Of a DNA stretch of 13,420 nucleotides, positions 1-6,000 are shown piece after piece. Made by a program: the position numbers. Every line of letters begins with the position of its first letter. The stretch's first letter is position 1. Source of the DNA: Candidatus Aenigmatarchaeota archaeon (GTDB lineage Archaea > Aenigmatarchaeota > Aenigmatarchaeia > GW2011-AR5); NCBI GenBank assembly GCA_043799385.1, contig JAZDNV010000026.1, positions 1 to 13,420 on the forward strand, given 5' to 3'.

Positions 1-3000
1 ACAGCCAAGATTGACTATCGTTTCCAGTTCGCAATCGACATTCCTTCTCAACTTCTCTAGTGCAGCAAGCATGCGGTTGAAATTCGGCGGCAGCGTTATG
101 CGTTCGACGCCTATATCTTCAAAATATTTCGCTGTGTTTGCCGAATTGACTCTTCCGAAGAGCCCGAGTTTTATCCTCCAATGCGGGTATTCTTTTCTCA
201 CTAGCTCCACTAAATATGGATTCGATACGGTTATTATGTCAGCGTTCAGGTTATTTACCCACTCAAGATACTCGAACATCCCTTTCCTAAAATCTTTGTC
301 GAACTCCTTTCCGCCAAAACAAGGCGCGTTCACAAGATAGTTAAACTTAATTCCACATGAGTGGACGAAATCTACATGTTCCTTTGCCTTCTCTTCATTA
401 ACACTTGGTAGTGTAGATGTCGGTCTACCACCGCCCACGATGCTAGTACTTGTACAACCGTAGACTTCGCGGACGTTTTGAAATGTTTTTAGTTGCTCGA
501 TTAAATCGTCATCCCAAGAAGTTGGAACAGAGAATTTCATTCTTTCACGCAATCTCTAGTATAACGTCTTCCAGTTGCGGAACATTTTCGGATATATTAT
601 AATTTTTACAGAGACCGAACTCATATTTCATGACATCTTTCCTGTTTTCATTCCATGGAACATAAATCCTGAACTCGCTTGATTTGTACGCGTTCATTTT
701 GTCTGTTATGTTCAATCCGTATTCTTCGTAATAAGCCCCGACGACTTTATCGGAATTGTTATAAGTTATTGCAAGTGCTTTGTCGAGCGAGCCTGCAACC
801 GCTTTTATTGTATTTTCATCAATGCCTTTCTTCGCAGCTATGACAGAAGGCATGAGGTACGTTCCGTACAGTTTTATGCATTCCTCATCCATATCAACAA
901 TCTTCTTTAACTTCAACCTCTCCACGTCCGGAACGTTTTCGACTGAGAGCATGCCTGCGTCTACATCACCCTTCTGAATCAACTGGGGTATGACCGGCAG
1001 CGGTTTTGCTATCAGAGTGACATCATTCAAGCTCATGTTGTTTTTTACAAACAAGTCTTGCAAGAATAAGGTTGAGAGCCATGTCAGCCCACCGATTGCC
1101 ACAGTCTTGCCTTTCAGGTCCTTTATCGATGTTATGTTTGAATCCTCCCTTGCAAATATGATGCTGTATGTCCTTCCATGCGGATATAGAATCCTCCAAT
1201 CATTATTTTTGTTCCAGGCTATCGTGAATACAGGAAGCGTGACCATGCCCATGTCTGCTTCGCCGTTGATGAACATGTCGTTCCATCGTTCTGACGGCAC
1301 AAGGTTTATTTCAACGTTTTTTGGTAATTCAACAAGACCATTATCTACACTCCACTTGAATCCATAACTCCATGCGTTGTTCATGAAAACAAGCTTAACC
1401 TTTTCTTCTTTTTTGCTGCTTGTAGAATTCAACGCATAGATGGAAAAAATCGCAATTATTGCAATAATCAGAACTGCTATTATGATATATTTTTTAGACA
1501 TCATCAACAGAAATTACGTTTTTGCGTATTTAAAACCATTCCTATCGTTTCTATAAATCCAAGCCAAACAGATGCAGCGTGTAAAATGGCATTGGCTTTG
1601 CGAATAAGTTCAGCGGCGGCGGGTCATGGAACGTTGGCTCAAGCAAATCAGTGTCTTTATTTATTCCATTATTCTTTAATGCAATCTCTGCTATCTTTGT
1701 ACGCGGAAAGATGTGTATCCTGCTGAATTTTACGTAACCACTTAACCCAAGTTTGCGTATTTTATCCACTAATGCAAACGTTTCACCTAACGTGCCCATC
1801 GTTTCTCCAGGCACGTTTAGCAGCATGTTGAACAACGTATTAACCCCTTTGAAATCCTTCATCACGTTGGCGGCTTTCAGGATATCCTTAGTCGTCAACT
1901 CTTTCTGCAGTGTTTTCAGCATCTTGTCCGATCCGCTGTCCGGCGAGAACGTGAACTCGTTGCAGCCAGCTCTTACGGTCTTTTCAACAAGCCTTTTGCT
2001 TATTATGTCTTCCCTGAAATGGGTCGACCAATTCATACCAACCTTACTCTTTATCAGCGAATCGCATATATTTTCAATATGCGATTTCGGATGAAATATA
2101 CAGTCAGCCAAAAAAACATTGCTTATTCCAAAATTATTCCTTAAAATTTCAAATTCACCGACAACTGATTCTGGCGACCGCAGCCTTATGCATGAGCCCT
2201 GGATTATCGAGTACATGCAATAAATACATTTGAAGTTGCATCCGCGCCGCGTTTCCACTCCAATGCCGTCATAAACGCTGAAGTCTTTCGGCAATCCCTG
2301 CAATTCGAAATCCGGAATGAAGTCTATATTCTTCATCGGCTCGCGCTTCTCGGTGAAGACTACTCTGCCATTCTTCCTATAACAAATACCTTTGACTCTT
2401 TCAGGATTGCTCAGGTTTTTCAGCAGGTCAAGGAACGTCTCCCCGCCTTCGCCGACGATGCCGACGTCGATATCGAACCGTTCCATGAGCTCATTGGCAA
2501 ATGCGGTAAAGCTGGCTCCGCCGACTATCACCTTTGAGCCAGATTCTTTCACGATTTTTATTGTTTCATCGAATACTTCCAGCTGTGCGTCTGCTGGAAC
2601 GCCTCGTATGTAAAGGTTTCTCAATGAAATGCCAACGACATCGTAATCTTTTTTTTCCAGTCGTTTCCTCAACTCAGAAAAAGGGTTGCTGACGAGATTC
2701 ATGTCGAATATCTCTGCAGAGTGGCCGTGCTTTTCCAGGTATGTCCCAATCTTCGCCAGCCCGATTGGAAAAAATCTCTGGTTGGGATTGACGTCCCAGT
2801 ATTTGTTCGAGCGTACTTTCTCAGGTTTCTGGCTCAGCAAATTTATCAGTAAAACGTGCATGAAATCAACTATCGGCAAATAATTTTATAAATGAAGTTT
2901 ATTTATCGTACCAGCTAGGTTTTCTTTTTGCCACACCCTCCTCGTTGAAAAGACCTGGCGCAACCGCTCTCGAAATAAACGGGTCGAAAAACAATCTCAT

Positions 3001-6000
3001 CATCAGGGCAAGCGGACTCCTACTCCTGATAAAGTATTTGAATCCCAGCAACTTTACGTTATCAATATCCATGAAAGGCATTTTTTTCATATACCTCAGG
3101 AATTGATAAAAATAAAATTTGATTGTGACGTAGTTCCTTAACTCAATCATCTCCTTTTTTGTGAGGTATTTTGTGCGTATTATCGGCTCTGATGTAAAGT
3201 CGTACTTCCTGAAGTCGTAATTCTCTATCAATCCATCTTTTTTTGCTTTTTTCCACAAATCTGAACCAGGCAATGGCGTGTAAAACTGGAATGGTGATAT
3301 ATCCATCTTTAATTCAAGCGCATATCTTAGTTGTCTTAGCATTGACTCCCGCGTTTCATCTGCTATGCCAACTATGAAGGTCCCCTGTTTCATAACTTCA
3401 GGATACCTCTCGTTCATTATCCGAGCACACTCTTTTACTATGTCAACGTTCTTGTGTTTTGCATTCATGTCCTCAAGCTCTTCAGTTGTTGCCCTTTCTA
3501 CGCCTATCAGTACCTGACGCAAGCCCGATTCAACCATCTTCTTGAAAATGCCAAGTTTCTCGTCCCTTACTATATCCTCAGCGCGCATGCCGTTTGAGAA
3601 CCATACTATATCTAAATTTTTCTCTATCAATTTTTCCGAGAATTCCCTGCTCCATTCCGGGTTAACGTTCCACGCGTCGTCTGTAAAGAAGAAAACCCTG
3701 ACCTTATATTTATGATACAGGTTCTCTATTTCCCTTATAGTTCTGTCAACACTCTTCGTTCTCCATCTTGAATATCGGCAAAGGCGACCCTTGGTAATTC
3801 TTTCCTCTGCCATCTGTGGCCAGCATATGCAGAATTTGCAGTGGCCAATACAACCGCGGGAGTGGTGCAAAGTGACCATCGGATTTAACACAAAGCTATT
3901 TTCAGTATACCTATGCATCGGCATAAGTTCGTATGCAGGAAACGGAAGATCATCAAGATTTTCAATAAGAGGTCGTGGCTTTGTTCTAATTATCTTTTCG
4001 TTTTTGCCCTTGTATGCAATGCCTTTTATCTTCCTAAATTTTTTCCGCGGTTTCTGTAGCTCTTTAACTAATTCCAGCAATGTGTATTCGCCTTCACCCC
4101 TGACGATGAAGTCTATCGGATATTTGCTCAAGCTGTCTTCAAACATGCTGGAGTGGTGGATGCCGCCGGCAACTGTCACGGTCTTTGGGTTTATTTCCTT
4201 TGCCATTTTGAAGAGCTTGCCGTCTTCATGCGAGTAGCAGGTTTCAGAGCCAGCACCAATCACGTCTGGCTTTTTCTTTTCGATTATTTTCCTTAAACTT
4301 TTCCATCCTATCTTCTCTATACAACAATCGATAACTTCTACTTTGATATTATTTTCTTTCAGAATACTCGCTAAGCATAGAAGGTTCTGCGGCATCATGA
4401 AGTTCTCGAATTCCTCAAACATCGTCCATATGAATTTTGGTGGTCTGACAAGCAAGACTTTCATAATTATTCCTATAACTGTGATATAAGATTTAAATCA
4501 TTCAGTTTCAGAATAGCAGGTTTTATCTTTTCTATTGATTACGTTTTTCTGCGTTTTTATAGAATACTTTATTATCTCTTTCATCAATCTCTTTCCAAAG
4601 GCAGGGTCTATACCTTTTTTACCGCAGTTATCGGCGAATTTTTTCAGGACTACTTCCTCTCTTTTCAGGTGCCTTAATTTAATTCCGCGGGATTTCTTGT
4701 ATTTCGCCATCTCCTCGACAATTTTCATTCTCCTGCCGAGCACTTCTGCCAGCTCATAATCAATTGAATCTATCTTCTTCCTCAGTTTCTCCATATTCCA
4801 CTTATATATTTCTTCCTGCATATTTTTAATAAGATGCAAATGAAAATAGAACGCTACGAAAAATTTATAATTTTATCCATACTCTTGTGCATGCTTTTGC
4901 TCAGGGCATACAAAATAACCGTTGCTCCGGGCTTAGAAGCTCCGCAGAGCCTTGACGAGAATTACATAGGGATGTATGCAGCAAAAGTCATGAACGGCGA
5001 GATGATAACATCGCTTTTTTACTACATAGGACCCCATGGGATATATATCGCCACAATTTCATCCTATATATTTAATTTAAACATATTTTCCATTAGGTTT
5101 ATTTCCGTATTGATATCAATATCATCTTTCTTGATTCTTTACTATCTTGTAAGGGACAGGTACGGGTTCAAGACAGCTGTCATATTTTCGTTAATGCTCC
5201 AATTGCTTCCGTCATACATTATACAGATAAGACCGTTCTATACCCACATGATTAATTACCTCCTGTTTATACTGATATTCTACCTGTTGTTCAAATTTGA
5301 CGCTACAAAGAACAGGAACATAATTTATCTCATCGCATTCCTGATAGGTTCTTCCATAGCAATACACATACACGCAATTTACTTCATCGCAGCGCTGCTC
5401 GTCTCGTCAATAATCTTGAAAATTACAATACCAAAAAAATATATCATATATTCGCTGCCTTTCCTTTTGATAGGAATGATTCCTTTTATATATTATAACC
5501 TGACCCCGTGCGATACAGGAGAACTGTTCTGCACGTTCAAGTACGTACAATCCAATGTTTTTCTTACCGGAAAGGGCATATATAACATAGAAACAATGCA
5601 GAATTTTATAGGACTTTCGAAAGTATTTTTATTCAGTTCTTTTAACATATGGCCAAGTTTGGATTACCTTTCTCCACCGGAAATTTTTATATCGTGTTTG
5701 TCTCTATTCACATTTTTTATACTAATAGCGGCTTCAGTGATTTATGCGGCGATGAAAAAAAACAAGACTGATTTATTTTTGATATTCTTCTTAGGCATTT
5801 TTTTCATTGAGAATATATTCACTTTAGGCGGTATAGGGCCGTTCACATTATTGATTCTGCTACCCGTCTTATTTATTCTAATTTCAAACCTTATATCAAA
5901 ATTTAAAATTCATATAATTGCTTCGATAATAATTTTTGTAATTGTATTGAATTCATTAGCCTTTATGAAATATTTCGATAATTTCAAAGATAACGATGTG

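Follow-up and report, generated by a model that had tools for sequence, protein, structure and literature searches.

An orphan chorismate mutase heads a run of eight same-strand genes in Candidatus Aenigmatarchaeota archaeon GCA_043799385.1 (hereafter G000), and it is quite possible, if somewhat short of probable, that this operon specifies a tailoring pathway independent of oxygen and fed by imported chorismate, in which prephenate is the co-substrate of a U32-like enzyme. G000 is a symbiotic archaeon with a much reduced genome of 786 kb, whose 91% completeness limits the calls of absence made below. The window, i.e., the whole stretch of DNA analysed, covers positions 1-13,420 of contig C1 (JAZDNV010000026.1). 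The AroQ chorismate mutase is the first gene of the run on the minus strand, followed by two class B radical SAM enzymes, a binding protein, the U32-like protein, an ABC permease, an ATPase and a class I methyltransferase. The run continues from C1 onto contig C19 (coordinates headed L001), and its genes and neighbors are as follows.

4498..4821, minus strand: AroQ-type (CM_2) chorismate mutase (PF01817, 72.7 bits, cut-off 27)
2899..4464, minus strand: class B (B12-binding) radical SAM enzyme A, BchE/HpnJ-like (B12-binding 59.7 bits, Radical_SAM 56.0 bits)
1551..2879, minus strand: class B radical SAM enzyme B, nearest models BzaD and a "ladderane" lipid radical SAM (Radical_SAM 62.4 bits, B12-binding 53.1 bits)
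545..1507, minus strand: predicted membrane-anchored extracytoplasmic solute-binding protein, type II PBP fold, NitT/TauT-like (NMT1 48, Phosphonate-bd 31.9, VitK2_biosynth 28.2 bits)
1..552, minus strand: U32-like Fe-S protein, N-terminal 184 aa, open at the contig end (PF01136, 37.7 bits)
L001:11338-12000, minus strand, on C19: U32-like Fe-S protein, C part (PF01136, 25.0 bits)
L001:10568-11326, minus strand, on C19: ABC permease (BPD_transp_1), following the U32-like gene
L001:9912-10571, minus strand, on C19: ABC ATPase of the same run
L001:9020-9868, minus strand, on C19: class I methyltransferase of the same run
4834..6300, plus strand: PMT_2 (GT-C type) glycosyltransferase, divergent neighbor (PF13231, 37.8 bits)
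6979..13419, plus strand: giant surface protein, open at the window end (Laminin_G_3 and DUF2341 domains)

The genes on C1 are tightly packed, with gaps of 33, 19 and 43 nt along the run and then an overlap of 8 nt. The run spans the join between the two contigs, where the first 141 nt of C1 are exactly the last 141 nt of C19; overlaps of 141 nt tie several contigs of the assembly together and are therefore a k-mer feature of the assembler. The U32 open reading frame across the join encodes 357 aa without a stop, and full-length relatives align to its two halves from one end to the other. The claim of an earlier note that the gene is whole is thus borne out, but its length of about 353 aa needs correction to 357. 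The run is terminated on C19 by a convergent AsnB gene. At the other end, the starts of the mutase and the divergent PMT_2 gene are only 12-18 nt apart, so that the run's promoter is not located, a point against the preferred explanation. None of the sampled genomes from G000's own family has the eight-gene operon.

The longest open reading frame of the mutase starts at 4839 (TTG), and the Pfam match was called on 4498-4839(-), but the start is likely the ATG at 4821, giving a product of 107 aa. Its best solved relatives are AroQ mutases and PchB (PchB 1.5e-4). The motifs LRKKID, GRR, AKYK, KREE and YSIKTQ align with the catalytic positions of solved mutases (Arg/Arg/Lys/Arg-Glu/Ser-Gln), and the enzyme looks intact by sequence. 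It scores under the NCBIfam equivalog cut-offs (56.6 versus 66.95), a word-index search returned no close relative, and no signal peptide was seen at its N-terminus. It resembles AroQ enzymes such as the PheA mutase domain and the archaeal monofunctional mutases in its whole-length CM_2 domain and catalytic residues, but differs from them in that the genome holds no pathway upstream or downstream of it and in that it leads a radical SAM/U32/transporter operon. In the 91% complete genome, there was no match to PDT, Chorismate_synt, PDH_N, Chorismate_bind, EPSP_synthase or the AroH-type CM_1, and CmoA is also absent. Likewise, phmmer searches of the six-frame translation (E<=1e-3) returned nothing for the relatives' DAHP synthase, DHQ synthase, shikimate dehydrogenase, shikimate kinase, EPSPS, chorismate synthase, DHQase II, PDT or PDH, so that no other known consumer of prephenate was found among these sequences. 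The Pfam match, gene order and absence searches therefore agree with the earlier description of an orphan mutase heading a same-strand run. CM_2 matches occur in 10 of the 371 phylum genomes, including G000, and PF01136 matches in 20, while both are absent from the 43 genomes of G000's own family. The earlier note's figure for CM_2, 5 in 120 other genomes, differs from this count. In six of the nine other phylum genomes with a CM_2 match, prephenate dehydratase adjoins or is fused to the mutase.

The U32-like gene, the sole PF01136 match in G000, shares 25-38% full-length identity with the U32-like genes of two other genomes, G052 and G356. The earlier note had called it TrhP-like, a label that does not survive comparison with the NCBIfam models: TrhP is the best of these for the N part (9e-8) but reaches only 31.3 bits against a cut-off of 534, and UbiU 17.9 bits against 440. 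In the tree, a split with 99% local support separates the U32-like clade, which is widespread in bacteria, from the phylum's canonical U32 proteins. All 72 family rows retain canonical cysteines 1, 2 and 4, but the canonical CX6CX15CX3C motif is altered: the spacing is CX3C, and the third cysteine is a proline in G000 and a cysteine in only 28% of the family. The altered motif counts against the TrhP-like label and also speaks against our preferred explanation. The clade has, in addition, an invariant histidine and a C-terminal four-cysteine motif, CX3CX2CX2C. The structural model of a relative (P0002) is a TIM barrel whose best fold match is the U32 protein 5d88 (E 3e-13), and by this model the clade is predicted to be U32 in fold.

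With UbiU/UbiV of E. coli the protein shares the U32 fold family and Fe-S cysteines, but UbiU/UbiV form a heterodimer whereas G000 has one protein, of a clade with the altered cysteines, histidine and extra motif described above. Prephenate for UbiU/UbiV is made by a chorismate mutase domain according to PMC10990095, whereas its use by the G000 protein is putative; furthermore, a scan of the eight-gene run and its adjacent genes found no quinone-pathway gene. TrhP and RlhA share the Pfam U32 motif, but the G000 protein belongs to a separate clade, lacks a DUF3656-type extension at about 357 aa, and has a biosynthetic gene context unrelated to translation.

Relatives of the U32-like gene repeatedly lie beside genes of chorismate metabolism. 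In the related archaeon G052 (94% complete), CM_2, DAHP synthase, DHQ synthase, shikimate dehydrogenase, shikimate kinase, EPSPS and chorismate synthase are found at L051:914-7050, directly abutting a cluster of three U32-like paralogs and several radical SAM genes. In G371, a Rickettsiales MAG of ~0.9 Mb, a U32-like gene has DAHP synthase II, CM_2, DHQase II, chorismate synthase, shikimate kinase and DHQS no more than 6 kb away. PDT, PDH_N and Chorismate_bind were found in neither genome, and judging from gene content the shikimate pathway in both appears to stop at prephenate. In two Clostridia, Blautia glucerasea (L070) and a MAG (L086), the U32-like gene is followed directly downstream by a TrpG/PabA-like gene and a TrpE/PabB-like-CM_2 fusion. 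These four cases (G000, G052, G371 and the two Clostridia) are separate branches of the clade. Together with the single U32 gene and the lack of another known prephenate consumer in G000, the three further branches, as independent cases, support the functional link between mutase and U32 protein that the earlier note had drawn. Against it, among the 71 flanked bacterial loci that hold a family member, CM_2 lies within 10 kb in only three, two of which are closely related. There are also counter-examples: in G356 (96% complete), which carries at least four U32-like genes, neither CM_2 nor CM_1 nor chorismate synthase was found, and G374 and G375 have a U32-like gene but no CM_2 or CM_1.

Both radical SAM enzymes share the B12-binding and radical SAM domain architecture of class B enzymes (BzaD, BchE, HpnJ, sugar C-methyltransferases) but fall below every equivalog cut-off: enzyme A reaches 215.6 bits with BchE (cut-off 481), and enzyme B 299.8 bits with BzaD (450) and 223.8 bits with TIGR04072 (360). 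Enzyme A shares 43% identity with L111:3633-5198 and 38% with L088:12415-13848; each of these two lies in a bacterial cluster with U32-like genes. Among 56 dereplicated bacterial U32-like genes, 10 have a B12 radical SAM gene as direct same-strand neighbor and 18 have one within 10 kb; this repeated direct pairing sets the enzymes apart from known class B radical SAM proteins and was not found in the literature searched. Five bacterial loci (L111, L088, L066, L090 and L134) combine U32-like, B12 radical SAM, PMT_2, GT1/GT2, AsnB and polysaccharide export genes, with PMT_2 genes found in L111, L088, L090 and L134, and this mix matches the G000 region. There, GT-C/GT2 transferases, AsnB and the giant surface protein, whose sequence combines a hydrophobic segment at the N-terminus with a Gly-rich stretch and numerous N-x-S/T sequons (N-glycosylation), lie near the adjacent B12 radical SAM genes.

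By its sequence, including an N-terminal hydrophobic helix, the binding protein is assigned to extracytoplasmic proteins of the SsuA/TauA/NMT1 type. Its model (pLDDT 94.7) has as nearest folds AF1704 and MqnD, SsuA, Thi5, PqqT, ThiY and TauA, all at TM ~0.6-0.7. An MqnA-like cytoplasmic enzyme is disfavored because of the membrane anchor. It shares the type II periplasmic-binding fold with MqnA/MqnD and the NitT/TauT binding proteins (SsuA, TauA, ThiY, PqqT), and, like NitT/TauT systems, is encoded in one operon together with a BPD_transp_1 permease and an ABC ATPase, but it is only 13-17% identical to all solved relatives and belongs to a rare subfamily (18 representatives at E<=1e-10 among 1.84 billion). 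The nearest families take sulfonates, pyrimidine precursors, PQQ or thiamin, which counts against chorismate as ligand. No homologs of the binding protein and permease were found in 80 flanked bacterial loci; the importer is carried only by the cluster version without shikimate genes, which fits a functional replacement of these genes.

The data show the genes and their order, the contig join, the mutase's orphan status, the family assignments, the altered Fe-S motif and the recurring neighborhoods. From these we infer the imported ligand, the use of prephenate by the U32-like enzyme, its hydroxylation chemistry and its substrate as follows. The ABC importer would take up chorismate, or possibly the substrate of the pathway, and the mutase would convert chorismate to prephenate. 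Rather than feeding Phe/Tyr synthesis, prephenate would be the hydroxyl donor of the U32-like enzyme by analogy with UbiU/UbiV, leaving phenylpyruvate and CO2 as by-products, and the B12 radical SAM enzymes and the methyltransferase may introduce additional C- or O-modifications. The pathway most likely acts on a glycan of the cell surface, a lipid-linked sugar or a small molecule that the surrounding island makes. Prephenate-dependent hydroxylation is known on electron-rich aromatic or pyrimidine rings, and no such substrate is evident in the glycan island, which argues against this scheme. As for precedent, PMC10990095 gives prephenate as the oxygen donor of UbiU/V-dependent hydroxylation by genetics and 18O labelling, and states that direct hydroxylase activity of canonical U32 proteins has not yet been demonstrated in vitro. 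According to PMC10990095 and PMC5727448, prephenate is required for RlhA and TrhP; the latter paper reports a genetic requirement for prephenate and for Fe-S assembly, and that RlhA also needs C-terminal cysteines.

The same neighborhoods could be explained if prephenate (or chorismate) were instead a building block that the U32-like enzyme itself transforms, e.g., as a non-orthologous decarboxylase or dehydratase, with the radical SAM enzymes and methyltransferase decorating the ring to give a small metabolite, or phenylpyruvate/Phe in G052 and G371. This alternative, unlikely but serious, explains the full shikimate pathway without PDT/PDH in these two genomes, and in L093, L078 and L069 a class I/II aminotransferase that could aminate the keto acid adjoins the U32-like gene or is one gene away. 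However, the clusters that hold most family members are of NRPS, lipid, glycan or molybdoenzyme type and have no chorismate gene near, the queries used detected no aromatic aminotransferase in G000, and three paralogs in G052 and at least four in G356 would be odd for a single housekeeping step; moreover, the known U32 proteins use prephenate as donor (PMC10990095). It is distinctly unlikely that the adjacency is incidental, with the U32-like protein working without prephenate in a glycan/lipid tailoring module, e.g., as redox partner of a class B radical SAM enzyme, and the mutase a leftover or in other use. Pairing with B12 radical SAM genes is indeed far more frequent (10/56 genes adjacent) than with CM_2 (3/71 loci), and G356, G374 and G375 do without any mutase, but the mutase keeps its catalytic residues in a 786 kb genome without other prephenate use, lies 33 nt from the next same-strand gene, and chorismate-mutase genes recur beside the clade in four separate branches.

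The earlier note's suggestion of RNA or a prenylated ring as target finds no support, with the family lying in biosynthetic or glycan-type clusters and often directly beside B12 radical SAM genes. A TrhP/RlhA-type RNA or UbiU/V-type quinone hydroxylase system is highly improbable: the best NCBIfam model is TrhP, and UbiA prenyltransferases flank the U32-like gene in the relatives L085 and L060, but scores are far below the cut-offs, the clade is separate, the run and adjacent genes scanned hold no quinone-pathway or RNA-binding domain, and what the operon encodes is radical SAM enzymes, a transporter and a methyltransferase. Such targets are also disfavored because of the context of adjacent B12 radical SAM, GT-C/GT2, AsnB and sequon-rich surface protein genes. 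We give equally little credence to the CM_2 protein being an isochorismate pyruvate lyase, an aminodeoxychorismate mutase or an effector against the host chorismate pool; PchB is among its solved relatives, and CM_2 is fused to a TrpE/PabB-like synthase in L070 and L086, but its best matches are true mutases, isochorismate or aminodeoxychorismate would have to come from a Chorismate_bind enzyme, which G000 lacks, and the N-terminus of the CM_2 protein shows no signal peptide. Under the preferred reading of a prephenate-dependent tailoring pathway, these results suggest that an archaeon unable to make aromatic amino acids keeps a prephenate-making enzyme, and that prephenate may serve it as a helper for oxygen-free chemistry on a cell product.

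The chorismate mutase is the first of eight genes that lie on one strand and run across the join between contigs C1 and C19 of the Aenigmatarchaeota genome studied (G000). The following features on C1 are needed here.

4498-4821, minus strand: CM_2 chorismate mutase (longest ORF to 4839, likely start ATG 4821)
2899-4464, minus strand: class B radical SAM enzyme A (nearest models BchE and HpnJ, below curated cut-offs)
1551-2879, minus strand: class B radical SAM enzyme B (nearest models BzaD and a 'ladderane' lipid radical SAM enzyme, below curated cut-offs)
545-1507, minus strand: solute-binding protein
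1-552, minus strand: U32-family protein, first 184 residues
6979-13419, plus strand: giant ORF, open at the window end, >2147 aa

Downstream from the mutase the intergenic distances are 33, 19 and 43 nt, followed by an 8-nt overlap. Three more genes of the run lie on C19 and encode a BPD_transp_1 permease, an ABC ATPase and a class I methyltransferase, after which a convergent asparagine synthase gene sets the limit of the run; farther on C19 there are two additional radical SAM genes, a DegT-type sugar aminotransferase and a GT2 transferase. C1 begins with the same 141 nt that end C19. Since exact 141-nt overlaps connect many contigs in this assembly, the overlap alone indicates only a shared assembler k-mer. 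The U32 frame across the joined contigs is stop-free over 357 aa, and when its two halves are aligned with full-length relatives the junction shows neither gap nor duplication. Taken together, the 141-nt identity, the open frame and the match of both halves to full-length relatives bear out the join proposed in the earlier note.

Upstream of the mutase lie divergent genes, a PMT_2 (GT-C) glycosyltransferase and then the gene of the giant protein. The latter has a hydrophobic N-terminus, a glycine-rich stretch (GC 0.556 in this region, about 0.43 elsewhere), dense N-x-S/T sequons, and Laminin_G_3 and DUF2341 domains, and is probably a heavily glycosylated surface protein. The predicted starts of the mutase (4821, minus) and of PMT_2 (4834/4840, plus) are 12-18 nt apart, which leaves too little space for two promoters; the run may be transcribed from within the neighboring gene, or be leaderless. 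A 100-aa ORF at 6293-6595 (minus strand) resembles the N-terminal part of DUF1616 below threshold (26.7 bits against 31.6) and may be a gene fragment.

The CM_2 profile matches the mutase over all of its positions (1-80 of 80) with 72.7 bits, the Pfam gathering cut-off being 27. When the protein was aligned with solved AroQ mutases and PchB, its motifs LRKKID, GRR, AKYK, KREE and YSIKTQ matched residues of the solved mutases, and we take the Arg, Arg, Lys, Arg-Glu and Ser...Gln concerned to be 11', 28, 39, 51/52 and 84/88 in the E. coli active-site numbering. It misses the NCBIfam equivalog cut-offs (CM_archaeal, 56.6 against 66.95; PRK06285, 53.2 against 77), and no close relative was found by word-index search. 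Judged from its sequence, the protein is a divergent member of the AroQ (CM_2) family and looks like a functional enzyme. In G000 (786 kb, 91% complete), no match was found to PDT (prephenate dehydratase), PDH_N (prephenate dehydrogenase), Chorismate_synt, EPSP_synthase, Chorismate_bind or CM_1, and control genomes gave matches for each family tested as absent. Nor did phmmer find in the six-frame translation of G000 any counterpart of the shikimate enzymes of G052 (a relative in the phylum) and of locus L093, or of the prephenate dehydratases and dehydrogenases of relatives; queries with aromatic aminotransferases of relatives gave a sole weak match, to the DegT gene. The earlier note had called the mutase an orphan, and it remains one, as the profile and phmmer searches described found no shikimate, Phe/Tyr or Chorismate_bind gene. 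Prephenate use of the CmoA type was also considered and rejected, as TIGR00740 does not exceed its cut-off in G000, in the phylum relatives G052 and G356, in the Rickettsiales MAG G371 or in G375, a further carrier of U32-like genes. The methyltransferase of the run matches generic models only.

PF01136 scores 37.7 bits on the half of the U32-like protein encoded on C1 (N part) and 25.0 bits on the half encoded on C19 (C part), with a cut-off of 22.4, and only positions 4-90 and 164-193 of the 233 in the profile are covered. Among NCBIfam models, the N part reaches 31.3 bits with TrhP (cut-off 534) and 17.9 with UbiU (cut-off 440), and the C part matches none. PF01136 occurs in 20 of the 371 phylum genomes, mostly in canonical proteins of 400-420 aa that score 250-283 bits. 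The G000 gene (39.5 bits) groups with weak matches in G052 (three, all on a single contig), G356 (four or more) and a third relative, G283; by BLAST it shares 25-38% identity with those of G052 and G356 over the full length, and 18 more relatives of 325-385 aa were found in a large protein database. For one relative, P0002, which shares 43% identity with the C part, modelling gave a TIM barrel (pLDDT 87.8); the best structural match of this model, by a wide margin, is Mk0906 of the U32 family (5d88; E = 3.3e-13, TMt 0.73). A profile search with the family also hit 5d88 (E = 1.4e-15). A TIM-barrel fold like that of Mk0906 is thus predicted for the U32-like family by way of P0002.

The four-cysteine signature of the U32 family is CX6CX15CX3C according to PMC11574389. 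All 72 rows of the U32-like family have Cys in canonical columns 1, 2 and 4, with the spacing CX3C instead of CX6C; the third is Cys in 28% of the 72 rows and Pro214 in G000. His194 is invariant, a second His is present in 85% of the rows, and a C-terminal motif CX3CX2CX2C (C313/C317/C320/C323) in 96-99%. The fold and motif data thus describe a member of the U32 superfamily that departs from the cysteine signature seen in characterised hydroxylation factors. A FastTree phylogeny of 74 dereplicated members and four canonical U32 proteins places the family in a clade apart from the canonical ones (99% local support). The label 'TrhP-like' used in the earlier note is therefore not supported, in view of the scores far below the TrhP and UbiU cut-offs, the failed signature and the separate clade.

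Relatives were gathered by scanning species-representative genomes for DNA that could encode the motif DNKKLDGF; a DNA search of genome contigs with the C part of G000 itself returned no locus. At least 119 loci matched the pattern, and among the matches listed a family member is encoded in 106 of 119 loci and in 71 of the 80 flanked loci. The clade is present in at least 12 bacterial phyla among the matches listed, its carriers including Bacillota (Ruminococcus, Clostridium, Blautia, Pseudobacteroides), Bacteroidota, Omnitrophota, Nitrospirota, Thermodesulfobacteriota, Planctomycetota, Bdellovibrionota, Chloroflexota, Spirochaetota and Pseudomonadota. Clostridium puniceum, Pseudobacteroides cellulosolvens, Blautia glucerasea and Ruminococcus flavefaciens are cultured carriers. 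In the tree, G000 branches weakly (85-87%) with bacterial sequences, apart from the archaeal group of G052 and G356. By protein search the mutase was found in 10 of the 371 phylum genomes, G000 included, but the other 43 genomes in the family of G000 gave no match. The bacterial placement and the absence of both the mutase and U32 from these 43 genomes suggest that the operon was acquired.

Six of the nine other phylum mutases adjoin, or are fused with, a prephenate dehydratase (loci L013-L017 and L019, in G025, G028, G130, G085, G027 and G263); three of these modules are followed by an aminotransferase and two adjoin PheRS genes. Of the remaining mutases, two are standalone and one is a spurious match, and none of the nine loci has a U32 gene. 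Because G025 has neither chorismate synthase nor EPSPS, the lineage seems to rely repeatedly on external chorismate or prephenate, and a module of the G025 type implies scavenging of these compounds for phenylalanine synthesis.

According to PMC10990095, PMC5727448 and PMC11574389, hydroxylation that depends on UbiU/V takes its oxygen from prephenate supplied by a mutase domain, with phenylpyruvate as the proposed by-product, and prephenate is needed for RlhA and TrhP as well. Several carriers of the U32-like clade link it with prephenate in their gene order. G052 (94% complete) has a run of CM_2, DAHP synthase, DHQ synthase, shikimate dehydrogenase, shikimate kinase, EPSPS and chorismate synthase, directly followed by three U32-like genes, several radical SAM genes, YcaO and an A24-type peptidase gene. 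PDT, PDH_N and Chorismate_bind have no match in G052, so that its shikimate pathway appears to end at prephenate. In G371 (about 0.9 Mb), DAHP synthase II, CM_2, DHQase II, chorismate synthase, shikimate kinase and DHQ synthase all lie within 6 kb of the U32-like gene, and PDT, PDH_N and Chorismate_bind were likewise not found. Two clostridial loci, L070 of Blautia glucerasea and L086 of a Clostridia MAG, have a U32-like gene followed by a TrpG/PabA-like amidotransferase and a TrpE/PabB-like-CM_2 fusion. In L070 (6119-13220), NifE/D-like and NifH-like genes lie on the other side of the U32-like gene and a NifB-like radical SAM gene follows the fusion; L086 (360-5297) has the same amidotransferase and fusion but a different radical SAM gene. 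An ordinary CM-PDT protein is encoded elsewhere in both genomes, and the fusion would produce an amino- or otherwise substituted prephenate analogue beside the U32-like enzyme. The G000, G052, G371 and clostridial cases lie on separate branches of the U32-like tree.

Other carriers speak against a strict dependence. CM_2 lies within 10 kb in 3 of the 71 flanked bacterial loci among the matches listed, and two of these three are closely related. G356 (96% complete) has a U32-like cluster and lacks CM_2, CM_1 and chorismate synthase; CM_2 and CM_1 are also absent from two further carriers, G374 and G375. An AroH-type mutase does not account for these counter-examples, being absent from all three. 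Either such carriers import prephenate, or the clade is not always prephenate-dependent. No mutase lies near the closest full-length relatives of the G000 protein, which are of the P0002 type and come from 9 metagenome loci. DHQase II occurs near family members in 4 loci among the matches listed and was discarded as support for prephenate: in L097, the one of these loci whose neighbors were scanned, the gene stands with a DegT-type aminotransferase and an HAD phosphatase beside NRPS genes, a set that looks like an aminoshikimate route. The prephenate dependence of the U32-like protein is thus suggested by genomic association, with G052, G371, L070 and L086 for it and G356, G374 and G375 against.

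The importer parts all lie in the one operon, namely an extracytoplasmic binding protein, the BPD_transp_1 permease and the ABC ATPase (NitT/TauT type). The permease and ATPase stay below cut-off with all of their nearest models (SaoP, SsuC, PhnT2, SaoA). The binding protein, which faces outward as judged from its N-terminal membrane helix, belongs by sequence to a rare subfamily of the SsuA/TauA group with one close relative in the word-index search, and its fold gives similar TM scores to MqnD/AF1704, SsuA, Thi5, PqqT, ThiY and TauA, so that fold search does not separate MqnA/D from SsuA. VitK2_biosynth matches it with 28.2 bits (cut-off 26), less than NMT1 (48 bits), and reading it as an MqnA chorismate dehydratase was rejected in view of its membrane anchor and the transporter genes alongside. 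Homologs of the binding protein and the permease were absent from the 80 flanked bacterial loci among the matches listed. The importer thus occurs where the genome cannot make chorismate, as in G000, and a shikimate operon is there in G052 and G371; this is the one argument, an indirect one, that chorismate may be what it takes up.

Both radical SAM enzymes exceed the domain cut-offs (enzyme A, B12-binding 59.7 and radical SAM 56.0 bits; enzyme B, 53.1 and 62.4 bits) and stay under the NCBIfam cut-offs of BchE (enzyme A, 215.6 bits against 481) and BzaD (enzyme B, 299.8 against 450). Tailoring of a cobamide lower ligand, which the likeness of enzyme B to BzaD and the presence of a methyltransferase had suggested, was rejected, as CobS is found in 0 of the 44 family genomes, G000 included, and enzyme A is not Bza-like. 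Among the matches listed, class B radical SAM genes are the most regular partner of U32-like genes: B12 radical SAM genes occur at 12 loci (23 genes), and of the 56 dereplicated U32-like genes 10 have one as direct neighbor on the same strand and 18 within 10 kb. NRPS modules with thioesterase (15 loci), MMPL exporters (9 loci; in L104 a ketoacyl synthase adjoins the MMPL gene), UbiA prenyltransferases, glycan genes and molybdopterin oxidoreductase arrays are the other neighbors among the matches listed. Five loci (L111, L088, L066, L090 and L134) each have several U32-like and several B12 radical SAM genes, in L111 as three successive pairs, together with PMT_2, GT1/GT2, AsnB, GDSL esterase, flippase and export genes. 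The surroundings in G000 comprise the same gene set, and the best match of enzyme A is in L111 (43% identity). From the radical SAM pairing and the shared glycan-type gene set, the G000 operon looks to us like a module that tailors a surface glycan, a lipid-linked sugar or some small molecule. An RNA or quinone target, close to the RNA or prenylated ring proposed in the earlier note, is a rival reading; nothing at these loci points to RNA, and a quinone is hinted at only by UbiA beside two distant relatives.

Several relatives in the clade have surroundings of their own. P0002-type loci carry arrays in which 4-5 paralogous molybdopterin oxidoreductases, each about 935 aa long, are accompanied by 4Fe-4S subunits and a NarJ-like chaperone (L181, L183 and L185 by Pfam scan; L182, L184, L186 and L187 share the ORF-size pattern), with a UbiD decarboxylase in L181, and resemble gene clusters for the anaerobic oxidation of hydrocarbons or aromatics. 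The large clusters of G052 and G356 (L051, G052 C16:7700-20000; L052; L053/L054, G356 C25:108000-140000) contain 3-4 U32-like paralogs and an A24-type prepilin-peptidase-like gene, with YcaO in G052, and their many radical SAM genes fall into sizes of about 320-330 aa and about 480 aa; in both genomes a conserved 81-aa ORF (38/81 identical between them) lies beside a conserved 320-aa protein (111/320 identical) that has no Pfam match. These clusters look like a protein- or peptide-modification system. One further branch (L078:8496-13809, L069:8442-13581 and L093:4008-8011) always comes with a GHMP-kinase domain, whose fusion partner is a methyltransferase in L078 and L069 and Ham1 in L093, and with a HisC/CobD-like aminotransferase and Ham1 NTP pyrophosphatase; L078 and L069 add an adenylate-kinase-like gene.

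The mechanism that we propose for the G000 operon would begin with import of chorismate and its conversion to prephenate by the AroQ mutase. The U32-like Fe-S enzyme would then pass the hydroxyl of prephenate to the substrate, freeing phenylpyruvate and CO2, and the two class B radical SAM enzymes and the methyltransferase would carry out methylation or other radical steps. There are rival explanations. The CM_2 protein might act on another substrate. Prephenate might serve as a scaffold, or the U32-like enzyme might be a non-orthologous dehydratase. The adjacency might also be incidental and the U32-like protein a partner of the radical SAM enzymes, to which the frequent radical SAM neighbors and the mutase-less carriers would be congenial, and the recurrence of the mutase on separate branches of the tree less so.

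A wider reading, which we consider rather improbable, is that the U32-like clade is a general oxygen-independent tailoring family that consumes donors of the prephenate type and frequently works alongside class B radical SAM enzymes. Reduced genomes would then keep the shikimate pathway (G052, G371) or import chorismate (G000) solely for the co-substrate, and the clostridial TrpE/PabB-like-CM_2 version may transfer nitrogen, not oxygen, via an amino prephenate analogue. Prephenate-dependent U32 systems as such are already known; prephenate was reportedly established as an organic oxygen donor in 2024, for ubiquinone only, and to our knowledge most U32 subfamilies are without known function. 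Our literature search found no description of the cysteine pattern, the class B radical SAM pairing or pathways ending at prephenate in reduced genomes. Our search likewise returned no published account of the clade or the operon, though one of the 12 subfamilies in PMC5727448, whose supplementary table lay outside the search, may correspond.

The G000 locus and its relatives define a large, unstudied U32-like clade and make the prephenate-donor idea testable beyond RNA and quinones, with three reduced genomes in which prephenate apparently has no other use. The cultured carriers of U32-like genes give access for knock-outs and 18O labelling. If the idea is true, the chorismate that a DPANN symbiont scavenges from its host would serve it not for nutrition but as a reagent in surface construction.
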